Notes under the pieces: generated by a model
Told to the model about the DNA's origin: nothing
What the model saw: only the letters and a program-made list of their open reading frames with translations
Databases searched by the model: none
Position numbers and translations under genes: made by a program
Part shown: positions 34,321-48,084 of the stretch, one piece after another
How positions within the stretch are numbered: the first letter of the stretch is position 1
Layout of the letters: each line of letters begins with the position of its first letter
NCBI GenBank assembly: GCA_963665235.2
Contig: CAXXLX010000001.1
Span: forward strand, 3,296,001 to 3,360,000
Reading direction: 5' to 3'
DNA length: 64,000 bases
Source of the DNA: Candidatus Poribacteria bacterium
GTDB lineage: Bacteria; Poribacteria; WGA-4E; WGA-3G

Positions 34321-37300
34321 TTGATGTTTAGTCGTGAAAAGTCCCCAATCATTGTGTGTCTTCTGTTTCTTATAGTCTGCCCGTTCTGTTTCTTATCCAT
34401 TGCACACGCCCAAGATGAAACGAGCGACGCAAAAGTCATTGAACGTTACAAACTGATGCTGAATCGTAAACCGAAAGAGGGGAGTACATTCGACCGGGTC
34501 TATCAGTTTTATCTCGAAGGTGCCGGGCTGGATGCAATGCTCAGCGATTATCAGACAGAGGCGCTAGCCAACCCGAACAATTTTAACGTTCAACTTATCT
34601 TAGGGCATCTATACAAACGACTCGGCAAAGATGCTGAAGCGGTCGCTGCATATCAACACGCTGTCCAACTCGCGCCTGACAGCTATTATCCGCATTTTGC
34701 CTTGGGACAGATGCAGGCGGCCTTACGTCAACATGAGGAAGCAATCGGCGAGCTAACAAAAGCAGCTACACTGTCCGAACAGGCACAGAACGTGTCCCTC
34801 GAAGAATTAACCGCAATATACAAAGCACTCGGACACGCCTATTTCCGAAGAGACAACGTCGAAGACGCAATTCAGGCGTGGCAAAAAATATCTGAACTGA
34901 ACCCGCAGGACATCTTCGCACGGATTGAACTGGCAGATCTCTTCCGAGAACAGGAACTCTACGAGCAAGCAATATCGCAACACGAAACAATAATTCAGCA
35001 GAAACAGGATGACCCGTATCGGGTGTGCCTGAGCCATCGGGAAATTGGGAATATTCACCAGGCGAAAGGCGATTATCGGGCTGCCGTTCAAAGCTATGAT
35101 GCCGCACTTGCCCTAACCGCCCCCGGCAACTGGCTCCGCAAAGACCTACAACACCGTATCATCGGCATCTATGCAGCGGACAGTAATTGGGAAGGCTTAA
35201 TCAAGTACTATCAAGGCAAACTTGAAGCAACGCCAAACGAACCGGAACTCCTCGGTTTGTTAGCAGCCGCGTCCATTGAAAACCAGCAGCTTGAAGAAGG
35301 CATCAGCACATATCGAAAAGGATTGGAACTTGCACCAACCGACACGAACCTACGTTTAAACCTTATCGCCTCGCTCCGAAACGCAGAGAAATTTGAGGAC
35401 GCAGCAGCGGAATACGAAAAGCTCAGCGAACAGGCACCTGACGACTTCGGTATCTATCGCGAACTAGGCGAACTCTATCTGCAGCTCGGAAATAGGGACA
35501 AAGCTAAGGCAGTATATCAAAAAATGATTGAGCGGGCCCCAAACAGTGCGGGCACTCACCTTATCCTCGCAGAAATTTACGCCGGACACGAATGGCTCGA
35601 CGATGCCATCGCCCAATATGAGAAAGCGAGCTCGCTTGAACCGAACAATCTCGATTACATAGAATATTTCGGAGAGTTCTATTTTCGTCAAGGCAATCGT
35701 GAGAAAGCACTTGACACGTGGAATCGGATGGTCGCCGGCGATAAGAACACCGCTGAGAATCACGCGCAACTTGCACAGCTACTCAACGCGAAAAATTTCA
35801 AAACTGAGGCGGTCGCAGCAATCCGAAAAGCCGTTGCACTAATGCCAGATGAATACCGCTATCGTGAAACGTTGGCAAACCAGCTCATGGAGCACAAGGA
35901 ATACGATGAAGCACTCACCGAATACACAGCGGCGATGAAACTTGCACCCAACCCGTTCTTTGCCGAAAAGATGGATGACCAAAGAATTGAACTCTACCGC
36001 AGACAAGGGACACTCCTAGAAAAAATTGAACTTCTCGAAGCGGAGCTTGAAAAACCGGGCTTAAGTGATACCGAACAGTTCACAAATTACAAACAGCTCA
36101 CCAAAATGTCCCTCAAATTAACCAACATCACTTATGCCCTTGAAGTGCTTTTGAAAGCTAAAGCACTTCAACCCGATGATGTTGTCGTCAACCGGTGGCT
36201 CGCGGACATCTACACACGGCAAGGCAGACGCAACGAGGCAAATGCTATCTATACGCACCTAATCGCAATAGACACCGCAAACGCCCGTGAATACCATGCA
36301 AACATCGCAAAGTCCTACCTGAACGTGATGGATTTTGAAGCAGCAACAACGGCAGCTAAACAGGTAATAGCCCATAGTCCACGGAATCCAGAGGGACATC
36401 AACTGCTTGCACAAATTGCCAAGCAATCCAAAAACTATGATACCGCCATAGACAGCCTAAAACAGGCAATTCGGCTACGGCCAGAAGCAATTGACACACG
36501 CGCTGAGCTAGCTGATATTTATAAACTTTCTGGAAATCTTCATCAAGCCCTATCACAGTACTGGCGGTGTTGGGACTTAAGCGGTAGTGTTAGCGATAAA
36601 CTCACCTTTGTCAAACCGCTCTCTGAAATATATTATGACCTCGGTAGACGCGGCGAATTTGAAGAAAAGCTAAAACAATTGGCGAAATCTAATACTACCG
36701 GGGTCGGCCCTGTCTTGGCACTTGCTGAACTTTACCGCATGGAAGGCGACCTGCCGAGTGCACGTTTCCAACTAGCGCAGGCTTTGAACAAGCAACGTGA
36801 AAATCCGGAACTCTTGAGCCACCTCGTCCAAATCAGCATAGCACTTGGGAATGTCCAGGACGCGCTTACGTATCAGCAGCGACTTGTCAAAGCCAATCCT
36901 GACGCTACTAACCAACAAAGACTTGGCGAATTGCTGTTTGACGCAGGACGGGAACAGGAAGCGATTCAGGCGTGGACAAAATTACTTCACGCGAAAAACC
37001 GGACACTTGAAGCTGAAATCAAACTCGCCGCTTTATTACTCCGGCACGGGTTATCAGAGGAGGCGTTTTTTGTGCTTGACCGGGCAGCAGAGAAAATTGC
37101 GGGGACCGATGCACACATCCCACTTTATCGATTGGGAGCTATGTTAGTCGGAATGAATGAACCGGAACGCGCTCGCACCTATTTCCAACGCATTCTTGAG
37201 ATGCCCGAGCCGACTATAGATGCTAAAAATCAGAAAACCACAAAACCGACTATCTACACCGCTTCTACCATACCAGGCGTTGACATTAACAAATTTGAAA

Positions 37301-40300
37301 TCGCCCGCGGAAACATCAGCAGGATTCAGAGTAAACCCACTTTCACGGGGGGCGGTACGGCATGGATACCGAAAACTTTTGAAGAGACCCAAGCCGCCGC
37401 GCTCGTACATTTGACTACAATTGCACAGCGGCAGGGAAAACTTCCTCAACTCGTTCAACATTTTGAGGCAAATGCTGAAGCGAATCCGACTGACATCAAA
37501 GCACTTGAAACCTTAGTGCAGCTCTATACCCTAGTCCAGTACAACGACAAGGCTGAAAAAACGATTGATAGGTTAATCGAAATCTCACCCAATGATGCGG
37601 CATACCAACCGCTACGAGTGCATCGCGCAGTGCGGGAAAACCTCAATTATGAAACGTTCAAAAAATCACTCGACGAGATACCCGGCTTAGTCCCCGAAGC
37701 ACGGCTCCGATATACCGCAGAGTATGCGCAACTCCTGTCCCGTTCAGATAAAAAAGATGACGCAATAAAACTCATGCAGGAAATTGAGGATGTAAACGTC
37801 ACTGACATCAGCACCGGTTTTATGTTAGTTGAAGCTTTTCTGATGATGGATAAGACAGATAGCGCGGAGAAAATCCTTCTTAATCTACCTATACCTCCTC
37901 AGAAACAGCAGCAGCAATATCAACGATTGTTTGAAAGACTCACAGACGCTTACATCGACCAAGGCGAGCTGGATAAAACTGCTGCGCTTTTCTGGGTCTT
38001 CTGTGAACGTACAAAACCCAACACTATAAATTCGAGACGCGTTGCTGCACTTCCACAGAGCTCCTATTATTATGGCGGTTATAGGCCAATTCAGACCAGT
38101 TATCCCACAACCACAGTCTACTTCAATCGAAGTCGTCTGAATTATCTCCAATCTATCTTCCGTGAGTTTTGGATGCGGGAACAGCAGGAAACCTTATATA
38201 CAAAATTCCGAACAGAATTAGACGCGGCAAAAGGGAGAGACCGTATCTATCCTAGTCTGGCACTCAGCTACTGCTATTGGTGGGCTGAAAAACGCGATAA
38301 AGCACAAAAGGTGCTGTCAACCTTACAACAGGAATTTCCTGATGACCTGACGCTTAAACTCAACACCGCTTTTGTCTCTATTCAGAACGGAAAACATGGA
38401 GAGGCTTTAAAAATGATTACCGACCTGGCTGAAATAGAACCGAGAAATCGGCAGCAATATCGTAATTTATTACTACAGCTTGCCATTCGTACGGGTGATT
38501 CTGTTAGTTTGCGTGCACTGATTACAAAATTGTTAAATTCGGCAGTCGGCGCGCAGGAGCTTTATCAGCTCTCACAGACACTCCAAAACGCTGGGTTCAC
38601 ACAGTACGCAATTTCGGCTGGAAAAAAAGCGATGACATTAGCAATGGCACAACGAAACCCGAACTTTCTGATAGACCTAGCGGAACATCTCGGACGACTC
38701 GGTAGGGGGCAGGATGCTGCACGTCTTGCAGAACGCGCCTTACGGTTCGCCAGTCAAACCGACCGATACGGACGGACGATGTATTCATGGAATATGCGAC
38801 AGGCTGTTAGTTTGACGAGTCACTCAAAAAACATGCAGGAACGCGAAAAACGGTTCATAGCAGAGGCCCAAAAAAATCCGGAAGCATTCCAAGCACAACT
38901 TAAACTCGCCATGTTTTATGAGAACACCAATCAGATTGAAAAAGCCTCCCAGGGGTTCAAGAAGGCATTGGAATTGCAACCCAAAGACAGCATAACTCGC
39001 CTTAGATACGTCCGAATGCTGGAGCGTGCAGGGAAAGCTATGGAGGCTCTGCCGGAATATACAACCCTTTTGAAAAATGATTCAACCGCACTCGGGTATG
39101 ACTACGAAAAAGCAATTGATGCGTTTGTCGCCGCTGGCGAAATTGACGCGCTGATTTCACTCACAAAAGAGCTGATTCTCCCTGTCGGACAATACGCTGG
39201 CAACGATTTCACACAAAAGGTTGCCCGGCGATGTCTCACAGAAAACAGACCTGACGCTGCTATAGAAATATTCGAAAAAATCCTTCAGGTCCATCCGAGC
39301 TGGGACTATATCCATCGGGAATTAGCAGCGGCATATCTTACAGCCGGCAACTCTGAAAAAGCAATTCAGTACTTAACAGAAAAATATGAGCTCGGGAAGA
39401 CATCCTTGTCCGAAACAGAGTTTCAATTGAAAATAGCGGAATTCCATGAAGCCGCCGGTGGACGAGAAAGCGCAATTCAATTTTTACGAGAACAAACCGA
39501 AACAGGTGGCGAATCGACCGTTGTTTTCAAACTTGCCGAATACTATGAGGTGAGCGGTGAATTAGAAAATTTCATAGCAGAATATGAAGCAAAACTCGCT
39601 GAAAATCCTTCAGCAACAAAATTGCTCTATATTTTAACCACTCTGAAGATAAAAGCGGATGATATTGAGGGGGCAACCGCACACGTCACTACATTGATTG
39701 ACAACGCGCTTATGTCCATTAATACGCAGTGGCTCTATAATCTTGCCGATGCATCTGACAAAGCTAATGCACACCCCCTTCAATTCCGCCTCCTCGAAGC
39801 CGCAGCGGAGAAGCTTGAACGCCAGAATTCGTGGAAACTTGCAGATTGTTACGAGAAATTAGGTGAGGCTTATGCCAAAAGAGGCGAGCAGGAGAAAGCA
39901 CAAAACGCATTACGTAAAATGGGCACCCTCCAAACTATGGAGGATAGCAGCCAGAGTGTATATGAAAAAAGAGGACTCGCCTCAACCTATATGCGACACG
40001 AAATGTGGGACGACGCTGAAAAGCTCCTAACCGAAATCATTAACGACCTCTCCGCCTCCTCGTACGAACGGGAACGTGCACAAGAGCAGTTTATGCAAAT
40101 AAAACAGAATAGGGACAAGCACGCAACCGCAAAAGAACTTGCCAAGAAAACAGAGGACCTGGATATAGGCATGCAACGGGCTATGGCAAAAGAGTTCATG
40201 CAGCAGAACCAGCTGGAGGAGGCAGTAGAAATTTTTGAACGAATTACGGAAACGATGCCTGAAGACCTGGAATCTCGCGCACAACTTGCAACGCTCTATT

Positions 40301-43300
40301 CCCGCCTCAATCAGCACGAAAAAGCCTCTCAAGTGTGGACAGCACTCCTCGAGGCCGACCCAGAAAATACAAGGTATCAGGATGGGCTCGTCAACAGTCT
40401 GCAAAATGCTGGTAAACTGAACGAGGCATTTGAACTCGCGCAGAAATACATTCAAACTGAACCGGAGGTCGGTGTCCATTACGTACGACTTGCAAAACTC
40501 TATGCAGCTGATGATAAGGTAGACGAAGCTATTGCCACCTATGAAAAAGCACTCGAATTTTCACCCGGAGACCGTCAAATTTATCTGAAGTTAGGGGACC
40601 TTTATCTTCTCAATGATGACATGGCGGCTGCTGAAAACGCATTCAGGAACGCCATTCAATTTACCGCATCAGAATGGGAACGGCAACGGACTGAACGGAA
40701 ATTGATAGGACTCTATCGCTCCCAGGGAAAGTTAGCAGCGATGCTACAGAAGGCTGAAGCTGAAGGCACACTCACTTATGAGATGCAAAAGGAATATGCC
40801 AAGCACTATCAGAATGTAGGCAATCTCGAAAAGGCGGCTGATGCCTACAAAAAAGTCCTCGACATGACAACGCAAAACTACCAACGACAGGACGTTATCT
40901 CCACGTTAATTGACATATATGCCAAACTTAACAAGAACGACGCAGCACTACAACTCTACGAAGCTGAAGTCCTCGCGAATCCCGGGTCGGCAACTAGGTC
41001 AACGAGTTATGGTCAGTCCGGTATTACAATTAACTTCACTAACGATGAAATACGCAAGGCTTTAGTTAAAACGTATAAAGAGCAAGGAAAATTAGACTCA
41101 TTGAAAACTATCTTTGAGGATAGACAGGAGAAAGAACCGGGGAACGTTCCTGTAATTGAGATGCTTGCTGAGATTTACCGCAATGCAGACAACCACCAAA
41201 AGGCAGCCGAAGCCTACCAGAAACTTTCCAAAGTGCTATCCGGCCCTAAGAAAGTCCACACTGCTTACGATGCCGCTATCGCACTTCATAAAAGCGGACA
41301 ACCCGAATTGGCGAAGGCACAACTTAAGAAAGCCGAAGCCGCGCTTCAAGTCAGCAGTCGAAAACAGGACGACTCATTTCTCGCCGCGCTCGCTACCTTA
41401 TGTCTTAAGAATCAGATGTACGACAGTGCTATTGAACTCGCTGACGCAGCAGTCACTGAAATGCAACGTTCCGGGGACACCTGGGTACAGGAATATTTTT
41501 ACGAGCTGCTTGGGAAAAGCTACCTCGGTGCCAAACGTTATGAGGAGGCTTTTGCAGCATATCGGCAGATGGCAAATAGTGCTGACGATAGCTACACACG
41601 AGATAGGGCGGAAACGGAAATGGATAAAATCGCCAAAGCGCACAACCTCTATGAAAAATGGATACCTGAACAACTTAAGCAGGTTCAGGAGAACCCTGAC
41701 GATGTCAACGCACGGTTGGAACTTGCTGAAAGTTACGAATACACCAAAAAAATCAAAGAAACCGTTGAGCAGTACGAAAAACTTGCCGAACTGCAACCTG
41801 ATAACGTACAGTGGTACAAAAAATTAGCAGACCTTTATCAAAAGCCAGAGAGCCTCGAGACAGGCGAAGTCATTGAAGGCACTGCCCTTACGCTCGACGG
41901 AAATCGGAGTTTCGTCGAAATCGGTGATAGCGAGTCTTTAAACAACATTACGGAACAGTTGACGGTATCTGCCTGGATTAAACCTGTGAGTTTCCCACAA
42001 AGATATGTCCCCATAATTTATAAAGGAGACAAGCGAACCCCAGATATTACCAATCGCAGCTTCACACTCTGGCTGCGGGATGACAAGAGAATTCAATTCT
42101 CTACCTCTCCGGGGGGGCAAGCAGAAAAATACATTTTTTCGCCATCAGGGACAATCCAGCTAAACAGATGGTATCACGTAGCAGGGATCATTGACCCTAA
42201 AAGAGATGTCATCAAACTATTTATAGATGGAATTGAGGTCGCAAGGACAAATGTTAACGGCAAGGAAAGTATCCATAAAAGCGAACACCCACTTCGGATT
42301 GGCGGTTCACACGAAGAAGAGGTAACTACCCACGCCTCCTTTGCCGGACAAATTGATGAGGTGCGTGTCTGGAACATTGCACGCACTGAAGACCAAATCC
42401 GCGCCGATATGAACAGACAACTCAACGGCGACGAACCCGGCCTAGTCGGATATTGGAAATTTGACGCGGAAACGGAAGACGTTATTACCGACCACTCCCC
42501 TAACGAAAACAGTGGTAAACGCATTGGAGAGACCGAACTTGAGCCTTATACCCGCCCAGTTTTCGAGGTCTTAAAAAATGAGAAATTACCACACATAGAC
42601 AATGCTTATGAAAAGGCGATTGAACTTGAACCCACCTCATACCAACTTTACGATGGATGGGCAAAGTTCTATGTCAAAACGAACGACACAGCAAGTGCAG
42701 AAGCGGTATATCGCCAGGCATTGGAGGTTTCGCTAACACAGAGTGAACACGATTCAGCAATTCAGGGTATTGTCGGCCTCTATCCCGGCGAGGAACAAAA
42801 GGATAAGCGCATCGCCATTCTTGAAGAGCTCAAACCGAAAATGAAAAAAAGTGCTGTCCTGCACGAACTTCTGGGGGCCCTCTACGAAAAAATAGGCGAT
42901 TCTGAAAAAGCAAATATCGCCTACGACCGATGGGTGAAAATGCGGGAAAGGGAGTTGAACCGTGGAGATAGTGCATCAAGCTACCGTAGTTTTGCGAATA
43001 CACTCATGGAGAAAGACCGCTATCCAGAAATGGCACTCAAATTCGCAAAACGCGCATCACAAAGATATACCGGTTCCAGCCAATACCAATACCTTGCAAC
43101 ACTTGGACAGGCTTATATTGCTAATGAACTTTATGATACCGCCCTAAAACATTTCAAACAGGCACTAAATACTATATCCTCCGAGTATGCATCGGACCAA
43201 TTTTGGAGACAGGTCGCTAACGCAAACAAGAACGTTAAGGACAAAGAACGTTATCTTCAAATGCTTGAAACGTTGATAAATACTACGCCATTGGAAAACG

Positions 43301-44520
43301 CAAGTAGTCGGGCAAATGTTTACCGTGTCCTCGCTCAATTCTATAGTGAAAACGATACACCTGAGAACGTGGAAAGCTACCTCTTAGCAAAAACAGGTTT
43401 TGTCCCTGAAACCCGTTGGCTAACGCTCGGACCGTTCAAAAACATAGACTCGCACGGCGTTTTGTATGCTTACATCCCTGAAGAGACTACACGCATCGAT
43501 ACAACAGCGAAATATTATGGGGAAGATGGCCTCATCAGTTGGAAAAAATCGAAAGATGAGTTATTAGATGGTCATTACGTTTTTTCCTATGATGACGATT
43601 GGAGCGCGGCCTATGTATGGGCAATTCTTATCTCACCCGATGAACGCGACATTGTCATGCGATTTGATAGCGACGACCAGGGAACAGTCTGGTTAAACGG
43701 AAAACAGGTTTTTAGGCATGATAGAACAAGTGGAACAAGAATTGACCGATACACCATTCCTGTCTCCTTGAAGCAGGGAGAAAATACTATCCTTATCAAG
43801 GTTTGCAATGCAAGAATGACCTGGGATTTTTATATGCGCCTTACGGATGCCGATGGCATCCCGTTTAGCGACCTGAAATTCAAAACTGCGGATGAATTGC
43901 TAAACGCACCGCCGCCTGAACCAACATTCCACGTAAATGCTGTCCTCGGCCTGGCTGAATACTACAGTAAAAACAACATGCCCGACAAGGCAATGGAACA
44001 GATGCTACAAACTGGCATCATTCATGAAGATGCGTGGTTGATCCTCGGCCCCTTTGACAATTCCGGCGGAGTTGGGCACAATACCGCTTATATTCCGGAA
44101 GACACAGCACAAATTGACGTAACCGCCGAATATGAGGGGGTAGCAGGCCAGATTCGTTGGAACAAATCAACCGATAACGTTTTCGACGGTTTTATCGATC
44201 TGGGCAAGGATGTCAATTGGTCTGTCTCTTATGCATGGGCAACCGTAACCTCGCCCGACGAACGGGAAGTGCAATTCAGATTTGGTAGCGATGATCAGGG
44301 AAAAATATGGTTAAATGGCAAAGAGGTATTCGCCAACCCAGAGGGTGGATGGGCAGTCCTTGATAGAGACGTTATCCCAGTGACACTTAAGGCAGGCAAA
44401 AACAGTGTCCTTGTCAAAGTCTGCAACGGAGAATTGAGCTGGGGATTCTTCTTCCGAATTACGGACACGGATGGCAACCCCTTTGAAGATTTGAAAATCA
44501 ACGACCCGCAAGACAATTAA
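34321..44520 (+). CDS. Giant (3399 aa) exported TPR-repeat protein with a LamG domain and two C-terminal beta-sandwich (PA14-like) domains
   Basis: Signal peptide ending AHA; dozens of TPRs; LamG (TVSAWIKP...WYHVA...FAGQIDEVRVWN); duplicated W..LGPF.N...SDDQG..WLNG...LK.G.N..L.KVCN domain. Confidence 0.88.
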   Translation: MMFSREKSPIIVCLLFLIVCPFCFLSIAHAQDETSDAKVIERYKLMLNRKPKEGSTFDRVYQFYLEGAGLDAMLSDYQTEALANPNNFNVQLILGHLYKRLGKDAEAVAAYQHAVQLAPDSYYPHFALGQMQAALRQHEEAIGELTKAATLSEQAQNVSLEELTAIYKALGHAYFRRDNVEDAIQAWQKISELNPQDIFARIELADLFREQELYEQAISQHETIIQQKQDDPYRVCLSHREIGNIHQAKGDYRAAVQSYDAALALTAPGNWLRKDLQHRIIGIYAADSNWEGLIKYYQGKLEATPNEPELLGLLAAASIENQQLEEGISTYRKGLELAPTDTNLRLNLIASLRNAEKFEDAAAEYEKLSEQAPDDFGIYRELGELYLQLGNRDKAKAVYQKMIERAPNSAGTHLILAEIYAGHEWLDDAIAQYEKASSLEPNNLDYIEYFGEFYFRQGNREKALDTWNRMVAGDKNTAENHAQLAQLLNAKNFKTEAVAAIRKAVALMPDEYRYRETLANQLMEHKEYDEALTEYTAAMKLAPNPFFAEKMDDQRIELYRRQGTLLEKIELLEAELEKPGLSDTEQFTNYKQLTKMSLKLTNITYALEVLLKAKALQPDDVVVNRWLADIYTRQGRRNEANAIYTHLIAIDTANAREYHANIAKSYLNVMDFEAATTAAKQVIAHSPRNPEGHQLLAQIAKQSKNYDTAIDSLKQAIRLRPEAIDTRAELADIYKLSGNLHQALSQYWRCWDLSGSVSDKLTFVKPLSEIYYDLGRRGEFEEKLKQLAKSNTTGVGPVLALAELYRMEGDLPSARFQLAQALNKQRENPELLSHLVQISIALGNVQDALTYQQRLVKANPDATNQQRLGELLFDAGREQEAIQAWTKLLHAKNRTLEAEIKLAALLLRHGLSEEAFFVLDRAAEKIAGTDAHIPLYRLGAMLVGMNEPERARTYFQRILEMPEPTIDAKNQKTTKPTIYTASTIPGVDINKFEIARGNISRIQSKPTFTGGGTAWIPKTFEETQAAALVHLTTIAQRQGKLPQLVQHFEANAEANPTDIKALETLVQLYTLVQYNDKAEKTIDRLIEISPNDAAYQPLRVHRAVRENLNYETFKKSLDEIPGLVPEARLRYTAEYAQLLSRSDKKDDAIKLMQEIEDVNVTDISTGFMLVEAFLMMDKTDSAEKILLNLPIPPQKQQQQYQRLFERLTDAYIDQGELDKTAALFWVFCERTKPNTINSRRVAALPQSSYYYGGYRPIQTSYPTTTVYFNRSRLNYLQSIFREFWMREQQETLYTKFRTELDAAKGRDRIYPSLALSYCYWWAEKRDKAQKVLSTLQQEFPDDLTLKLNTAFVSIQNGKHGEALKMITDLAEIEPRNRQQYRNLLLQLAIRTGDSVSLRALITKLLNSAVGAQELYQLSQTLQNAGFTQYAISAGKKAMTLAMAQRNPNFLIDLAEHLGRLGRGQDAARLAERALRFASQTDRYGRTMYSWNMRQAVSLTSHSKNMQEREKRFIAEAQKNPEAFQAQLKLAMFYENTNQIEKASQGFKKALELQPKDSITRLRYVRMLERAGKAMEALPEYTTLLKNDSTALGYDYEKAIDAFVAAGEIDALISLTKELILPVGQYAGNDFTQKVARRCLTENRPDAAIEIFEKILQVHPSWDYIHRELAAAYLTAGNSEKAIQYLTEKYELGKTSLSETEFQLKIAEFHEAAGGRESAIQFLREQTETGGESTVVFKLAEYYEVSGELENFIAEYEAKLAENPSATKLLYILTTLKIKADDIEGATAHVTTLIDNALMSINTQWLYNLADASDKANAHPLQFRLLEAAAEKLERQNSWKLADCYEKLGEAYAKRGEQEKAQNALRKMGTLQTMEDSSQSVYEKRGLASTYMRHEMWDDAEKLLTEIINDLSASSYERERAQEQFMQIKQNRDKHATAKELAKKTEDLDIGMQRAMAKEFMQQNQLEEAVEIFERITETMPEDLESRAQLATLYSRLNQHEKASQVWTALLEADPENTRYQDGLVNSLQNAGKLNEAFELAQKYIQTEPEVGVHYVRLAKLYAADDKVDEAIATYEKALEFSPGDRQIYLKLGDLYLLNDDMAAAENAFRNAIQFTASEWERQRTERKLIGLYRSQGKLAAMLQKAEAEGTLTYEMQKEYAKHYQNVGNLEKAADAYKKVLDMTTQNYQRQDVISTLIDIYAKLNKNDAALQLYEAEVLANPGSATRSTSYGQSGITINFTNDEIRKALVKTYKEQGKLDSLKTIFEDRQEKEPGNVPVIEMLAEIYRNADNHQKAAEAYQKLSKVLSGPKKVHTAYDAAIALHKSGQPELAKAQLKKAEAALQVSSRKQDDSFLAALATLCLKNQMYDSAIELADAAVTEMQRSGDTWVQEYFYELLGKSYLGAKRYEEAFAAYRQMANSADDSYTRDRAETEMDKIAKAHNLYEKWIPEQLKQVQENPDDVNARLELAESYEYTKKIKETVEQYEKLAELQPDNVQWYKKLADLYQKPESLETGEVIEGTALTLDGNRSFVEIGDSESLNNITEQLTVSAWIKPVSFPQRYVPIIYKGDKRTPDITNRSFTLWLRDDKRIQFSTSPGGQAEKYIFSPSGTIQLNRWYHVAGIIDPKRDVIKLFIDGIEVARTNVNGKESIHKSEHPLRIGGSHEEEVTTHASFAGQIDEVRVWNIARTEDQIRADMNRQLNGDEPGLVGYWKFDAETEDVITDHSPNENSGKRIGETELEPYTRPVFEVLKNEKLPHIDNAYEKAIELEPTSYQLYDGWAKFYVKTNDTASAEAVYRQALEVSLTQSEHDSAIQGIVGLYPGEEQKDKRIAILEELKPKMKKSAVLHELLGALYEKIGDSEKANIAYDRWVKMRERELNRGDSASSYRSFANTLMEKDRYPEMALKFAKRASQRYTGSSQYQYLATLGQAYIANELYDTALKHFKQALNTISSEYASDQFWRQVANANKNVKDKERYLQMLETLINTTPLENASSRANVYRVLAQFYSENDTPENVESYLLAKTGFVPETRWLTLGPFKNIDSHGVLYAYIPEETTRIDTTAKYYGEDGLISWKKSKDELLDGHYVFSYDDDWSAAYVWAILISPDERDIVMRFDSDDQGTVWLNGKQVFRHDRTSGTRIDRYTIPVSLKQGENTILIKVCNARMTWDFYMRLTDADGIPFSDLKFKTADELLNAPPPEPTFHVNAVLGLAEYYSKNNMPDKAMEQMLQTGIIHEDAWLILGPFDNSGGVGHNTAYIPEDTAQIDVTAEYEGVAGQIRWNKSTDNVFDGFIDLGKDVNWSVSYAWATVTSPDEREVQFRFGSDDQGKIWLNGKEVFANPEGGWAVLDRDVIPVTLKAGKNSVLVKVCNGELSWGFFFRITDTDGNPFEDLKINDPQDN

Positions 44521-45088: not shown

Positions 45089-45877
45089 ATGGTACGTTCG
45101 ATAATGTTTTCGCTCTTAGTAATACTCATGTTAATCACGGTTAGCACCATCACGGCAGGACTTCAAGATGGCATCGTGGTCTACTTCACGTTTGACGACG
45201 TTAGTGGTAAGACAATTCGGGATAGTTCTGGTAACGGTCTCGATGCGAACATCGTCGCGAATACTGAGATTGTCAAAGGCAAAAATGGCAATGCCATCAA
45301 GATTACTGCTGCAGGTGCCGATTGTGTGAACGTCCCCGCCGATGAAAAATTGAAAATCAGCGGAGAAATCACAATGGCAGCCTGGGTCTATCACGGCGCA
45401 TGGAATAAAGATGTCCAGTGGTTTGACAAAAACTGCCACAACGGCGGTGAGCATACATCCTACGGCATCGGTGTTTTCGGCGACGGTAATAATTTCAATA
45501 TGTTCTTAGGTTCAGACCAAAATCGGCAAACCTTGAACAAACCGCACGCGCTGAAAACAGACACGTGGCATTATGTCGTTGGCACCTACGATGGTGACGC
45601 GATGAAAATCTACGTCGATGGTAAGCTCGCTGTAGAAGAGGCTAAGAAGTTTAACTTTACTGGCACCAACGACCAAGATTTACGCATCGGTTGTTCAAAA
45701 GATCGAGCAAACTATACGTTTGAGAACGGTATGGTTGACGACGCTGCTATTTGGAGCCGCGCCCTCAGCGAAGCCGAAATCAATGAGGCGATGAACGGCG
45801 GTCTCCTCGACGTTTCACCCCAAAATAAGGCCGCCACAACGTGGGGCAGTATTAAGCAAAGAGCTGACGTGCATTAA
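45089..45877 (+). CDS. Exported LamG-like jellyroll domain protein
   Basis: Signal peptide, YFTFDD, ITMAAWV, WHYVVGTYDG, GMVDDAAIW; C-terminal DVSPQNKAATTWGSIK motif. Confidence 0.88.
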   Translation: MVRSIMFSLLVILMLITVSTITAGLQDGIVVYFTFDDVSGKTIRDSSGNGLDANIVANTEIVKGKNGNAIKITAAGADCVNVPADEKLKISGEITMAAWVYHGAWNKDVQWFDKNCHNGGEHTSYGIGVFGDGNNFNMFLGSDQNRQTLNKPHALKTDTWHYVVGTYDGDAMKIYVDGKLAVEEAKKFNFTGTNDQDLRIGCSKDRANYTFENGMVDDAAIWSRALSEAEINEAMNGGLLDVSPQNKAATTWGSIKQRADVH

Positions 45878-45898
45878 CCCTTTACTTTCACCTAATTA

Positions 45899-45938
45899 AA
45901 CGGCACAGGGTTCTAAAATCCGTGTGCCGTTTTTTTTC
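45899..45938 (+). terminator. Rho-independent terminator
   Basis: AACGGCACA...TGTGCCGTT hairpin followed by a T-run. Confidence 0.8.
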
Positions 45939-46010
45939 GTAATTCTCCCCCCGTTTTGATATGCTGCGATAGTTTCCCCTATTCCATAGAGCCTCTTACT
46001 ATAGACTTTC

Positions 46011-46403
46011 TTGACATACTCTCCCAGCTAAAGCAAGGGAGATTCTTTTAAAAAGTTCCGCTACGCGTTAGCTATTGGATTGTGGTTTTCAGACGTGTGA
46101 ACGTCCGAGGTCCCACCGAGGACATCCTCAACGGAGATGCTTGGGCTGTTCCAAGTCTTACTGCCCCTAACTCAAAGGACAAGGTTTCCCTGCCCTCGTG
46201 CTTCGCACCTTCTTTATGCTTGTGAATCAGTGCTTTGGTATCCAATGCAGCATGACCCGTCTTTTGGATACCGAAAGCAAAGCACAAAAATGTGGATATT
46301 GACTGGGTATCGCCAGAACATCAGCACACAACCCTACCATAGGTTGAGGTTCGGAACTTCAACATTGGTGGCGTTGAAGGTGGTAATCCGAACCACTGAT
46401 GAT
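46011..46403 (-). ncRNA. Candidate large structured ncRNA (omegaRNA/reRNA-like) inside the IS200/IS605 derivative
   Basis: Downstream of a consensus promoter; many nested stems; no credible ORF. Confidence 0.5.
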
Positions 46404-46409
46404 ATATAT

Positions 46410-46438
46410 ATTATACCACATTTTAATGCAAAAGTCAA
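46410..46438 (-). promoter_or_regulatory. Near-consensus sigma-70 promoter inside the element
   Basis: Minus strand TTGACT-N17-TATAAT. Confidence 0.75.
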
Positions 46439-46632
46439 ATTAAAAACATAAGCTTATGTTCCTACTACATCCCCCAGCTAAAGCACGGGGGTTTTGTAGC
46501 GGGAGACTTGATAAACCAACAGTTTCCATAAGTCAGCAACTATTATTGCATCATCCGATAAAACGTTGTATAATAAACATATCAGGAAAAACATAACCTT
46601 TCAAAAAATTGACAAATATAGAGGAGCATATC

Positions 46633-48084
46633 ATGGCAAACATAACACTTCAAAAAATTGACGAATATCGTTGGCGCATTCCAAAAAGTTATATGAAAGG
46701 CATGCGTGTAGATGGGATTGTCTATGCCAACGACAAGCTTCTGCAACAAGCAAAAAGCGATGAAGCGTTGCAACAGGTCGCAAACGTCGCGCATCTGCCC
46801 GGTATTGTCAAGCATTCGCTTGCAATGCCAGATTTGCACTGGGGTTACGGTTTCGTTATCGGTGGTGTTGCCGCAACCGACCCGAAGGCGGACGGCGTTG
46901 TTTCGCCCGGCGGCATCGGATACGACATCAACTGTGGCGTTCGCCTCATCCGGACCAATCTTGACATCTCACAACTAGAGGGTAAAAGGAAAGCACTCGT
47001 TGACAAGTTGTTCGACAATGTCCCGTGTGGCGTTGGCTCCAGTGGAAAAATTCGGCTCACTGTCCAAGAGGAGCGACAGATGTTAGAAAAGGGGGCATTG
47101 TGGGCAATTGAACGTGAATACGGTCACCCAGACGACCTCAACTTCACGGAGGCTACTGGCACCCTACACCATGCAAACGCCGATGCGGCAAGTCAACGCG
47201 CCTTAGAGCGTGGCAAAAATCAGCTCGGTACCCTCGGGTCGGGCAACCATTTCCTTGAGGTACAGGCAGTGGACCGCATTTTTCACCGTGAAGCCGCCGA
47301 TGCGATGGGGTTAAGTGAAGGCAATATCTGTGTCATGATTCACACCGGCTCACGTGGTTTCGGCTACCAAATTTGTGATGAACACGTCAAGAGCTGGGTC
47401 AAAGTTGCCGAAAGATACGGCATCAACCTCCCTGACCGGCAGCTTGCATCCGCACCGATTAATTCACCGGAGGGGCAGGATTACATCACCGCAATGGCAT
47501 GCAGTGCAAACTATGCATGGAACAATCGGCAATGTATCATGCACCTCGTTCGCCAGACCTTCATGCAGTTTTTTGACACAACAGAAGATGAACTCGGTTT
47601 AGAGCTGGTCTACGACGTAGCGCATAACATCGGGAAGTTTGAAAAACACACCGTTGATGGCGAAGAACGTGAATTGTTTATCCATCGCAAAGGGGCAACC
47701 CGTGCCTTCCCGGCGGGACATCCAGAAATTCCTGAAAAATATCAGAAAGTCGGGCAGCCTGTACTGATTCCCGGCGATATGGGAACGGCCTCTTACGTGC
47801 TAGTCGGTAATCCCGGTGCAATGGCAGAGACATGGGGGACAACCTGCCACGGTGCCGGTAGAGTCTTATCGCGTCGGAAGGCAGTTGCCTTAACAAAAGA
47901 TAGGTCTATCCAAGCGGACCTTGAAGCGAAAGGCATCTTCGTTCGTGCGGAAGGCAAGCGCACCCTCCAAGAAGAGGTCCCCGAGGCTTACAAGGATGTA
48001 GATGAAGTTGTCCGTGTCGTTGATGAGGCAGGGCTCTCACGCCGTGTGGCCCGGCTGCGTCCGATAGGTGTTGTGAAGGGTTGA
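46633..48084 (+). CDS. rtcB: RNA-splicing/repair ligase RtcB
   Basis: MPDLHWGYG, GYDINCG, GTLGSGNHF, HTGSRG, HN, HRKGAT, HGAGR, AYKDV. Confidence 0.96.
   Translation: MANITLQKIDEYRWRIPKSYMKGMRVDGIVYANDKLLQQAKSDEALQQVANVAHLPGIVKHSLAMPDLHWGYGFVIGGVAATDPKADGVVSPGGIGYDINCGVRLIRTNLDISQLEGKRKALVDKLFDNVPCGVGSSGKIRLTVQEERQMLEKGALWAIEREYGHPDDLNFTEATGTLHHANADAASQRALERGKNQLGTLGSGNHFLEVQAVDRIFHREAADAMGLSEGNICVMIHTGSRGFGYQICDEHVKSWVKVAERYGINLPDRQLASAPINSPEGQDYITAMACSANYAWNNRQCIMHLVRQTFMQFFDTTEDELGLELVYDVAHNIGKFEKHTVDGEERELFIHRKGATRAFPAGHPEIPEKYQKVGQPVLIPGDMGTASYVLVGNPGAMAETWGTTCHGAGRVLSRRKAVALTKDRSIQADLEAKGIFVRAEGKRTLQEEVPEAYKDVDEVVRVVDEAGLSRRVARLRPIGVVKG

Follow-up and report, generated by a model that had tools for sequence, protein, structure and literature searches.

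The minus strand of the window, that is, of the whole 64,000-nucleotide stretch of Candidatus Poribacteria DNA analyzed here, carries a 500-bp element without genes (positions 46011 to 46510) that is probably a guide-only hitch-hiker: it would make an omega-RNA guide and depend on TnpA and TnpB in trans. In every feature tested, it is a non-autonomous element of the IS200/IS605 type (PATE). The initial annotation had described a protein-free IS200/IS605 element here, which is borne out by its multiple copies with sharp ends, by an empty site, and by cognate TnpA and TnpB elements elsewhere in the genome. The general idea of a guide-only element has been published; the new part is a promoter-coupled, covarying 5' domain found across element lineages of Ca. 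Poribacteria.

The boundaries were fixed by an empty site. In a contig of the public run X3, position 46010 is followed immediately by 46511; the 500 bases between them are missing, and the joint has neither shared nor additional letters. The library kind of this run is not on record, and its longest contig of 150 kb indicates that it is most likely DNA. From the joint 46010|46511 it follows that the TTTAT at 46511 to 46515, the flanking target and TAM, lies outside the element, that TCAA forms its last four bases, and that the target was not duplicated. A search for empty TTTAT|GAAAG sites had been proposed in the initial annotation, and this contig contains an exact one. The interval given there, 45991 to 46515, did contain the element but also took in the flanking TTTAT and 20 nt of flank. 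Among 25 elements of the genome with this left-end type, the left flank was TTTAT in 18, ATTAT in 5, CTTAT in 1, and GTTAG in 1; TTTAT or ATTAT was thus the flank of 23. As a separate observation, 33-nt tandem repeats, each with a TTTAT, abutted IS ends or fragments in at least four places of the genome (C2:317353-317480, C1:470200-470330, C1:102250-102330, and downstream of C1:2106085), which may be insertion hot spots.

On re-reading of the sequence, all of the minus-strand features listed earlier (TTTAT, both end hairpins, a promoter, and a series of stems) were present. The left end (46465 to 46510) consists of 11 nt followed by a 35-nt hairpin, CTACAAAACCCCC...GGGGGATGTAG (46499 to 46465), whose inner G/C stem begins 19 nt from the boundary. 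The right end (46011 to 46042), read from the sequence and from comparison of the copies, is formed by a hairpin TCTCCC...GGGAGA (46042 to 46020) and a 9-nt tail, GTATGTCAA (46019 to 46011), with TCAA as the final bases and the boundary 9-10 nt beyond the hairpin. Both hairpins are subterminal and imperfect, and the terminal sequences differ and are not inverted repeats. IS608 and IS606 likewise have subterminal hairpins that are not inverted repeats and cause no target duplication. In these elements the inner hairpin starts 19 nt from the left cleavage site, the right hairpin is followed at a distance of about 10 nt by TCAA, and insertion occurs 3' of a T-rich pentamer, which is TTTAT for IS606. 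The end geometry of the element matches this pattern, and the element has no transposase of its own.

The genome of the window (G000) measures 5.3 Mb in 4 contigs. It contained nine near-full-length copies of the element (84-100% identity) at eight distinct sites; the copies at C1:1018303 and C3:14403 have both flanks in common and were counted as one site. Two degenerate copies and one fragment were also present. Every copy started with CAAGTC and finished with the same tail as the window copy, while the flanks were unrelated and differed at each site. Outside G000, a blastn search of 40 relatives with the RNA of the element (element A, of family A) matched only the last ~40 nt, at the right end, apart from one 80-nt match in the relative G017; the family A interior was thus seen in G000 alone.

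Partner elements with the same ends were found in the same genome. Blastn showed that a 1.41-kb TnpB-only family matches positions 1-113 of the element (left end and promoter) with 82% identity and positions 463-505 (right end, 43 nt) with 93% identity, and both ends were seen in about 10 copies of this family. Its 400-aa protein is a TnpB, as judged from its OrfB_IS605 (E 7e-21) and Cas12f1-like TNB (E 5e-20) domains. Two TnpA+TnpB elements, at C1:3153026 and C1:33258, have a left end nearly identical to that of the short element; in both, a transposase gene of the Y1_Tnp type (E 2.7e-37) precedes the TnpB gene. The left end and promoter are therefore common to the resident TnpB-only and TnpA+TnpB elements, and the right end is common to the TnpB-only ones. 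In total, 38 TnpB-like ORFs of at least 200 aa were detected in the genome by jackhmmer. G000 holds three protein-free families, each with a TnpB-encoding counterpart of the same right-end type. Copies with different flanks and TnpA or TnpB genes with the same ends, both of which had been named in the initial annotation as things to look for, thus exist in this genome.

Just inside the left end lies a sigma-70-type promoter, TTGACT-17-TATAAT with an extended -10 TG (46438 to 46410, minus strand), which matches at 11 of 12 positions, points to the right end as first annotated, and has a predicted start near 46403. Promoter-like sites numbered 3 in the region against 2.0 ± 1.6 in shuffled sequences, and the case for this promoter therefore rests on the quality of the match and on conservation rather than on the count. 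In 27 of 40 related loci, a promoter-like -10 box ended 0-2 nt before the first position of the 5' domain model described below (R1); such a motif was found anywhere within the upstream search interval in 29 of the 40. No terminator-like site was detected between 45500 and 47000. The promoter would drive a non-coding RNA of about 393 nt through the right end and into the flank. A 415-nt RNA from 46405 to 45991 was predicted to fold at -138.9 kcal/mol (z = -3.4), and 1 of 100 shuffled sequences folded as well.

We also searched two public metatranscriptome runs from one study (X1 and X2), which contained 6% of the sampled words and represented a related strain and related elements rather than this one. 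Where their contigs aligned, at 90-95% likeness, they spanned just the two end hairpins (46010-46053 and 46465-46496), with flanks derived from other TnpB-type elements, apart from one low-depth contig over 46231-46274. As the RNA libraries may contain DNA, these contigs show neither expression nor its absence. No transcript of the element itself was seen in X1 or X2, whose contigs derive from the related strain and elements.

The ~390 nt between the promoter and the right end contain no credible ORF. The same had been stated in the initial annotation, and it agrees with the lack of a conserved ORF across the nine copies and of a Pfam match. That the element instead encodes a small protein, either a 104-aa antisense or a 71-aa sense product, is extremely improbable. 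An antisense ORF of 103-104 aa does occur in 6 of the 9 copies, but the most divergent copy has lost it, two more copies encode a changed N-terminus, and the frame crosses the promoter. Its substitutions follow compensatory pairing rather than codons, and neither it nor the 71-aa sense ORF gave a Pfam match at E ≤ 1.

The 3' part of the element (46011 to 46197, minus strand) is homologous to the 3' end of tnpB. An nhmmer profile of the nine copies matched, over positions 321-478 (about 158), the 3' ends of nine TnpB-only elements with E values of 2.5e-12 to 1.6e-11. Weaker matches, with E values of 2.4e-5 to 3e-4, were to four TnpB genes of, or resembling those of, TnpA+TnpB elements. In the TnpB elements the homologous stretch overlaps the end of the ORF, and the end of the tnpB ORF is the known site of omega-RNAs. 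Judged by this homology, the 3' ~190 nt represent a putative TnpB omega-RNA scaffold. The earlier view that the RNA does not look like decayed tnpB had to be given up for these ~190 nt, given nhmmer E values of ~1e-12 and the alignment. At the protein level, a tblastn search with the 38 TnpB proteins for a tnpB remnant in element A gave a best E value of 0.12, for a match that was not colinear. The interior as decayed tnpB coding sequence was rejected, since a tblastn search of 10 short elements with the 38 TnpB ORFs returned nothing significant in element A; the only matches at E ≤ 3e-8 among the short elements were to the last 21 TnpB codons, in family C.

This 3' domain consists of three hairpins, the single strands TTTGAGTTAGG..GTAAGAC and TGAAAACCACAATCC, another hairpin, and the right-end hairpin. 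We aligned it with a TnpB-encoding element of the relative G017 (locus L032) from about 46197 to 46011, over ~190 nt. The first hairpin reads GGGCA.../...TTGTCC here and GGTTG.../...CAACC there and still pairs, and the TTTGAGTTAGG..GTAAGAC strand that follows it is conserved. Two hairpins are compensated (CTTGG/CCAAG versus CTGG/CCAG, and GACGT/ACGTC versus GCAGG/CCTGC), and a conserved strand, TGAAAACCAC(A/G)ATCC, precedes another hairpin and the right-end hairpin. When TnpB-encoding elements of three genomes were aligned, the changes preserved the stems of the 3' domain. An alifold prediction for family A (11 sequences) contained 104 pairs, 5 of them with compensatory changes, and these copies are too alike for a test of the 3' structure. 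The G017 TnpB with the closest scaffold is only 43-44% identical to any resident TnpB, and the resident 1.41-kb family differs from the element in two scaffold hairpins; a working partner in this cell is therefore not assured.

If the transcript passes the right end, the adjacent flank GAAAGTCTATAGTAAGAGGC (45991 to 46010, minus strand) would become the guide, by analogy with the build of TnpB omega-RNAs. A flank-derived guide (GAAAGTC...) directed against the empty site TTTAT|GAAAG had been proposed from the start, and with the 3' part homologous to an omega-RNA region this is the natural reading.

The omega-RNA part of the window copy also contains a 24-nt insertion (46106 to 46129, minus strand), which is present in 3 of the 9 copies and has an 18-nt core, TCCTCGGTGGGACCTCGG, with 19 occurrences in unrelated contexts of the genome. 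The repeated unit measures 24-27 nt. Besides the window, it was found at C1:893123, C1:1403189, C1:727689, C1:2521645, and other places, including another protein-free family. It was always followed by GACGT, with GAAAA in one degenerate fragment. The unit also occurs in coding sequence without shifting the frame, namely in a large beta-propeller-type ORF and in some 10 copies of an IscB/IsrB-like one. Within an omega-RNA-like region at C1:892.9-893.1 kb, it is repeated in tandem as a long array with an 18-nt period. The IscB/IsrB-like ORFs, at C1:2521400-2522100 (minus strand) and in about 10 paralogues, have a PLMP-type N-terminus and a RuvC motif, and several appear truncated.

Between the promoter and the scaffold, the 5' ~175 nt of the predicted RNA have no counterpart in TnpB elements, and the first ~110 transcribed nt and the ensuing long hairpin derive from no tnpB. 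The 5' RNA domain (module 1) lies at 46295 to 46408 on the minus strand. It is followed by the long hairpin (module 2, 46230 to 46285), GTGCTTT...GGTATCCAA / TTGGATACC...AAAGCAC, which in the divergent copy at C1:1298508 shows one compensatory pair and one G-U change; a long hairpin occupies the corresponding position in other families as well. Further protein-free elements of G000, with different ends of the TATCAC, TATGAC, and GATGTCAG types, also contain the first ~110 nt, again right behind a promoter of this kind. The domain is built as a three-way junction closed by helix P0, with a 7-nt internal loop in the P1/P3 arm and with hairpin P4 following. The 7-nt internal loop pairs with the loop of hairpin P5 to form a pseudoknot, P2.

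The initial structure was derived from 10 sequences, none of them from family A. In this set 97.1% of cells were paired, and both sides had changed at 12 of 32 pairs. A covariance model, R1, was built without family A and from the nested part only, leaving out the pseudoknot. R1 matched 46295-46408 at 36.5 bits (E 2e-6 in 77.6 kb); all stems differ there in sequence, and all pair. When 29 loci from genomes of relatives were added to the earlier sequences, giving a set of 41, 97.5% of cells were paired and 25 of the 32 pairs showed compensatory changes. The observed values were reached in 0 of 500 shuffles, and slid partners paired at 36-46%. In the pseudoknot, 6 of 7 pairs covaried and 97.2% were paired over the 41 sequences; as P2 was absent from the search model, the alignment had not been fitted to its pairs. 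P5, a 4-bp hairpin, was 96.9% paired, with a switch from C-G to A-U in 15 sequences. The stems CATCAG/CTGATG, GGTTCGGA/TCCGAACC, and CTTCAAC/GTTGAAG of the initial annotation correspond to helices P0, P1, and P3, all with strong covariation, and its remaining stems are hairpins of the middle and the omega-RNA part. A lack of compensatory changes had been named there as grounds for dismissing the RNA, and the 25 of 32 pairs in the 5' domain answer this point.

The 5' domain matched none of the known RNA families searched. Rfam gave no relevant match in the whole window at gathering score, nothing relevant at E ≤ 10 in 45800-46700, and nothing relevant at E ≤ 0.1 in 17 related loci; the only matches were chance-level ones to snoRNA, sRNA, and miRNA-like models, all below gathering scores. 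The domain is a well-supported candidate for a new RNA family. The earlier suggestion of a possibly undescribed ncRNA class fits the 5' half, which showed strong covariation and no match to Rfam models including HEARO, IS605-orfB, group I and II introns, ribozymes, and riboswitches, but not the 3' half, with its omega-RNA homology. HDV-like and hammerhead-like readings of the domain, prompted by its topology, were tried and rejected: no model matched, the expected conserved cores were missing, and P0 pairs a leader that such a ribozyme would discard.

The covariation bears on whether the pairings act in RNA at all. They might instead act in single-stranded DNA during peel-and-paste transposition, given that the folded strand is the top strand bearing the hairpins recognized by TnpA and that G-T pairs are possible in DNA. 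We consider this very unlikely, as autonomous and TnpB-bearing elements have the same ends without the domain, and the domain always starts at the promoter (with the motif placed 0-2 nt before it in 27 of the 40 loci). TnpA, as in IS608, is known to require only the subterminal hairpins and cleavage sites. G-U pairs were common in the 5' domain, as expected if the folding molecule is the RNA predicted from the promoter.

The same evidence speaks to a reading in which the element is an inert internal-deletion derivative, a plain MITE/PATE moved by TnpA, with any RNA functionless and the stems mere leftovers. Such a derivative would have its ends in common with full elements, as seen here; the conservation among the A-family copies carries little weight, given how similar they are; X1 and X2, with contigs from related strains and elements, yielded no element transcript; and the omega-RNA part of the window copy is interrupted by the 24-nt insertion. 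The interior from the promoter to the last ~190 nt is, however, absent from full elements and hence is not a product of deletion. The 5' domain covaries over the 41 sequences, 29 of them from relatives, and next to at least five right-end types, and the position of the promoter is kept. We therefore regard an inert derivative as quite unlikely and prefer a functional guide-only element.

We next describe the distribution of the 5' domain. In an even sample of the phylum, R1 matched 69 of 151 genomes, with G000 counted, and the matches listed numbered more than 270. In the family to which the window belongs, 67 of 99 genomes were positive, compared with 1 of 51 in eight other families. At least 25 scored matches each were obtained in two genomes. 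A degenerate pattern of the domain, searched in one genome per prokaryote species, returned 45 stretches, 35 of them from records titled Candidatus Poribacteria. Roughly as many stretches as the remaining 10 were estimated to arise by chance, and none of the 10 matched R1 at the pattern site, while all five Poribacteria stretches tested with R1 matched (E ≤ 3e-17). Among the genomes and patterns searched, the domain was thus found only in Ca. Poribacteria.

None of the 40 loci other than the window had a TnpB ORF inside the element. A lone TnpB-like ORF downstream of one locus (L085) belongs to a separate neighboring element with its own left end. The right ends of the 40 loci were scored by motif search. 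A right-end hairpin with a terminal motif was recognized in 31, located 288-701 nt after the start of the domain; 30 of these lay within 288-426 nt, and the 701-nt spacing is that of a copy carrying a tandem array. The motifs were TATCAC (16 loci), ATGTCAG (5), ATGTCAA (4), TATGAC (4), and GTGTCAA (2), and no right end was recognized in the other 9 loci. One 5' domain has therefore been combined with several distinct types of omega-RNA and right end, and it adjoins the promoter in protein-free elements of at least five right-end types.

Four loci in genomes of genus g6 (L091, L093, L094, and L095; locus positions ~1440-1830) were observed to contain the promoter, 5' domain, and scaffold without recognizable end hairpins. 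In L091 and L095, the RNA part lies directly upstream of a same-looking gene and runs into its ribosome-binding site; L093 and L094 have an ORF of the same size at the same offset. These loci may represent an immobilized or domesticated guide RNA.

These combinations also allow the 5' domain to be viewed as the real cargo, a ligand- or protein-binding, self-processing, or regulatory RNA for which the omega-RNA part serves as vehicle or 3' stabilizer. A closed three-way junction with a loop-to-internal-loop pseudoknot at the start of the transcript is read as typical of aptamer-like domains, the domain is joined to several unrelated ends and scaffolds, and in L091, L093, L094, and L095 it occurs without recognizable ends upstream of a same-looking gene. 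Yet 31 of the 40 other loci keep the right-end hairpin and terminal motif, and the domain is therefore hardly ever separated from a 3' part resembling an omega-RNA. Rfam models of known ribozymes and riboswitches gave no match, and no expression platform such as a terminator was visible. The cargo reading is accordingly unlikely in our estimate, and a domain serving the guide RNA is preferred.

The -10 box lies 0-2 nt before the start of the model, and P0 would therefore begin within a few bases of the predicted 5' end. With P0 tying up the 5' end of the transcript and a compact fold behind it, we favor protection from 5'-end-dependent decay or an aid to folding. On this argument, the domain would most likely stabilize the untranslated guide RNA or help it to fold. 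More tentatively, it is possible that the pseudoknotted 5' junction is a new functional RNA class that several IS200/IS605 lineages of Ca. Poribacteria have captured and shuffled into free-standing guide-RNA genes. Such a class may be an expression, stability, or sensing module, or a self-processing RNA. If this is true, the elements would be selfish guide-only elements that parasitize TnpB, a step toward guides uncoupled from the nuclease gene.

The preferred guide-only reading can be stated as a sequence of proposed steps. Resident IS605 copies that have this left end would supply the Y1 TnpA in trans, and the enzyme would excise the element as single-stranded DNA and insert it 3' of TTTAT. 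The internal promoter would then give rise to the RNA, of which the 3' ~190 nt would be an omega-RNA scaffold inherited from a tnpB element and the next 16-20 flank bases the guide. Loaded with this RNA, a TnpB encoded by a different element would cleave the allele that lacks the insertion (TTTAT followed by GAAAGTC...), where the element would be restored when the break is repaired from an occupied copy. The 5' ~175 nt would form a separate compact domain, with the first helix tying up the 5' end of the transcript.

Several known systems resemble this arrangement. The omega-RNA or reRNA of TnpB in IS605- and IS1341-type elements was reportedly described in 2021 by Karvelis and by Altae-Tran. 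The element resembles that system in three respects: its 3' ~190 nt show homology to the 3' end of tnpB together with the right end, its guide would come from the flank that adjoins the right end, and its TAM is identical with the transposon's target motif. The predicted RNA differs in lying outside a tnpB mRNA, with its own start, a foreign 5' domain, and no Rfam match. TnpB is the ancestor of Cas12.

According to the parts of Meers 2023 (10.1101/2023.03.14.532601) used here, PATEs often encode omega-RNAs that are acted on in trans, and the homing logic was established for TnpB elements and suggested for PATEs. The general idea of an RNA-only element served in trans by TnpB, put forward in the initial annotation, was therefore already present in that work. 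The Geobacillus stearothermophilus PATEs described in its text passages are similarly protein-free, with ends like those of TnpB elements, and are presumed to be mobilized by TnpA and served by TnpB in trans. Compared with these text passages, the element described here is set apart by an internal sigma-70 promoter and a ~175-nt 5' domain before the scaffold. Unlike in that description, the 5' domain is common to families with different ends.

IStrons, in the part of Zedaveinyte et al. (10.1101/2023.11.20.567912) consulted, combine a group I intron and a TnpB omega-RNA in one IS, and protein-free derivatives exist. They are the nearest analogue for a large structured RNA on the 5' side of an omega-RNA within one IS. 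The element, in contrast, matched no group I intron model and has its promoter downstream of the left-end hairpin; with the promoter in this position, its RNA cannot splice out of a host transcript across both ends.

In the literature searched, we found no paper joining Poribacteria and TnpB, nor, judging from titles and the starts of abstracts, any on a 5' accessory domain of protein-free omega-RNA elements. The elements described here bear on the question of how guide RNAs came to be encoded apart from their nuclease. They resemble natural free-standing guide-RNA genes: each has its own promoter and a conserved accessory domain, they are present in many copies, and one domain is found with different types of TnpB scaffold. 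Should the RNA prove to be made and loaded, TnpB guides can come from parasites of the parasite. The 5' domain might also serve to stabilize or regulate compact TnpB guide RNAs.

Minor observations were made on other elements of G000 and on the window itself. At C1:490753-491347 (L071), another element without protein genes agrees with this one in left end, promoter, and right-end type but has a different interior of ~400 nt, and R1 did not match it. At C1:1304700-1304900 (minus strand), a hairpin of ~45 nt is inserted in the loop of the left-end hairpin of a TnpB element, the counterpart of family C. In the window, a 3399-aa ORF (34321 to 44520, plus strand) lies just upstream of a neighboring gene.
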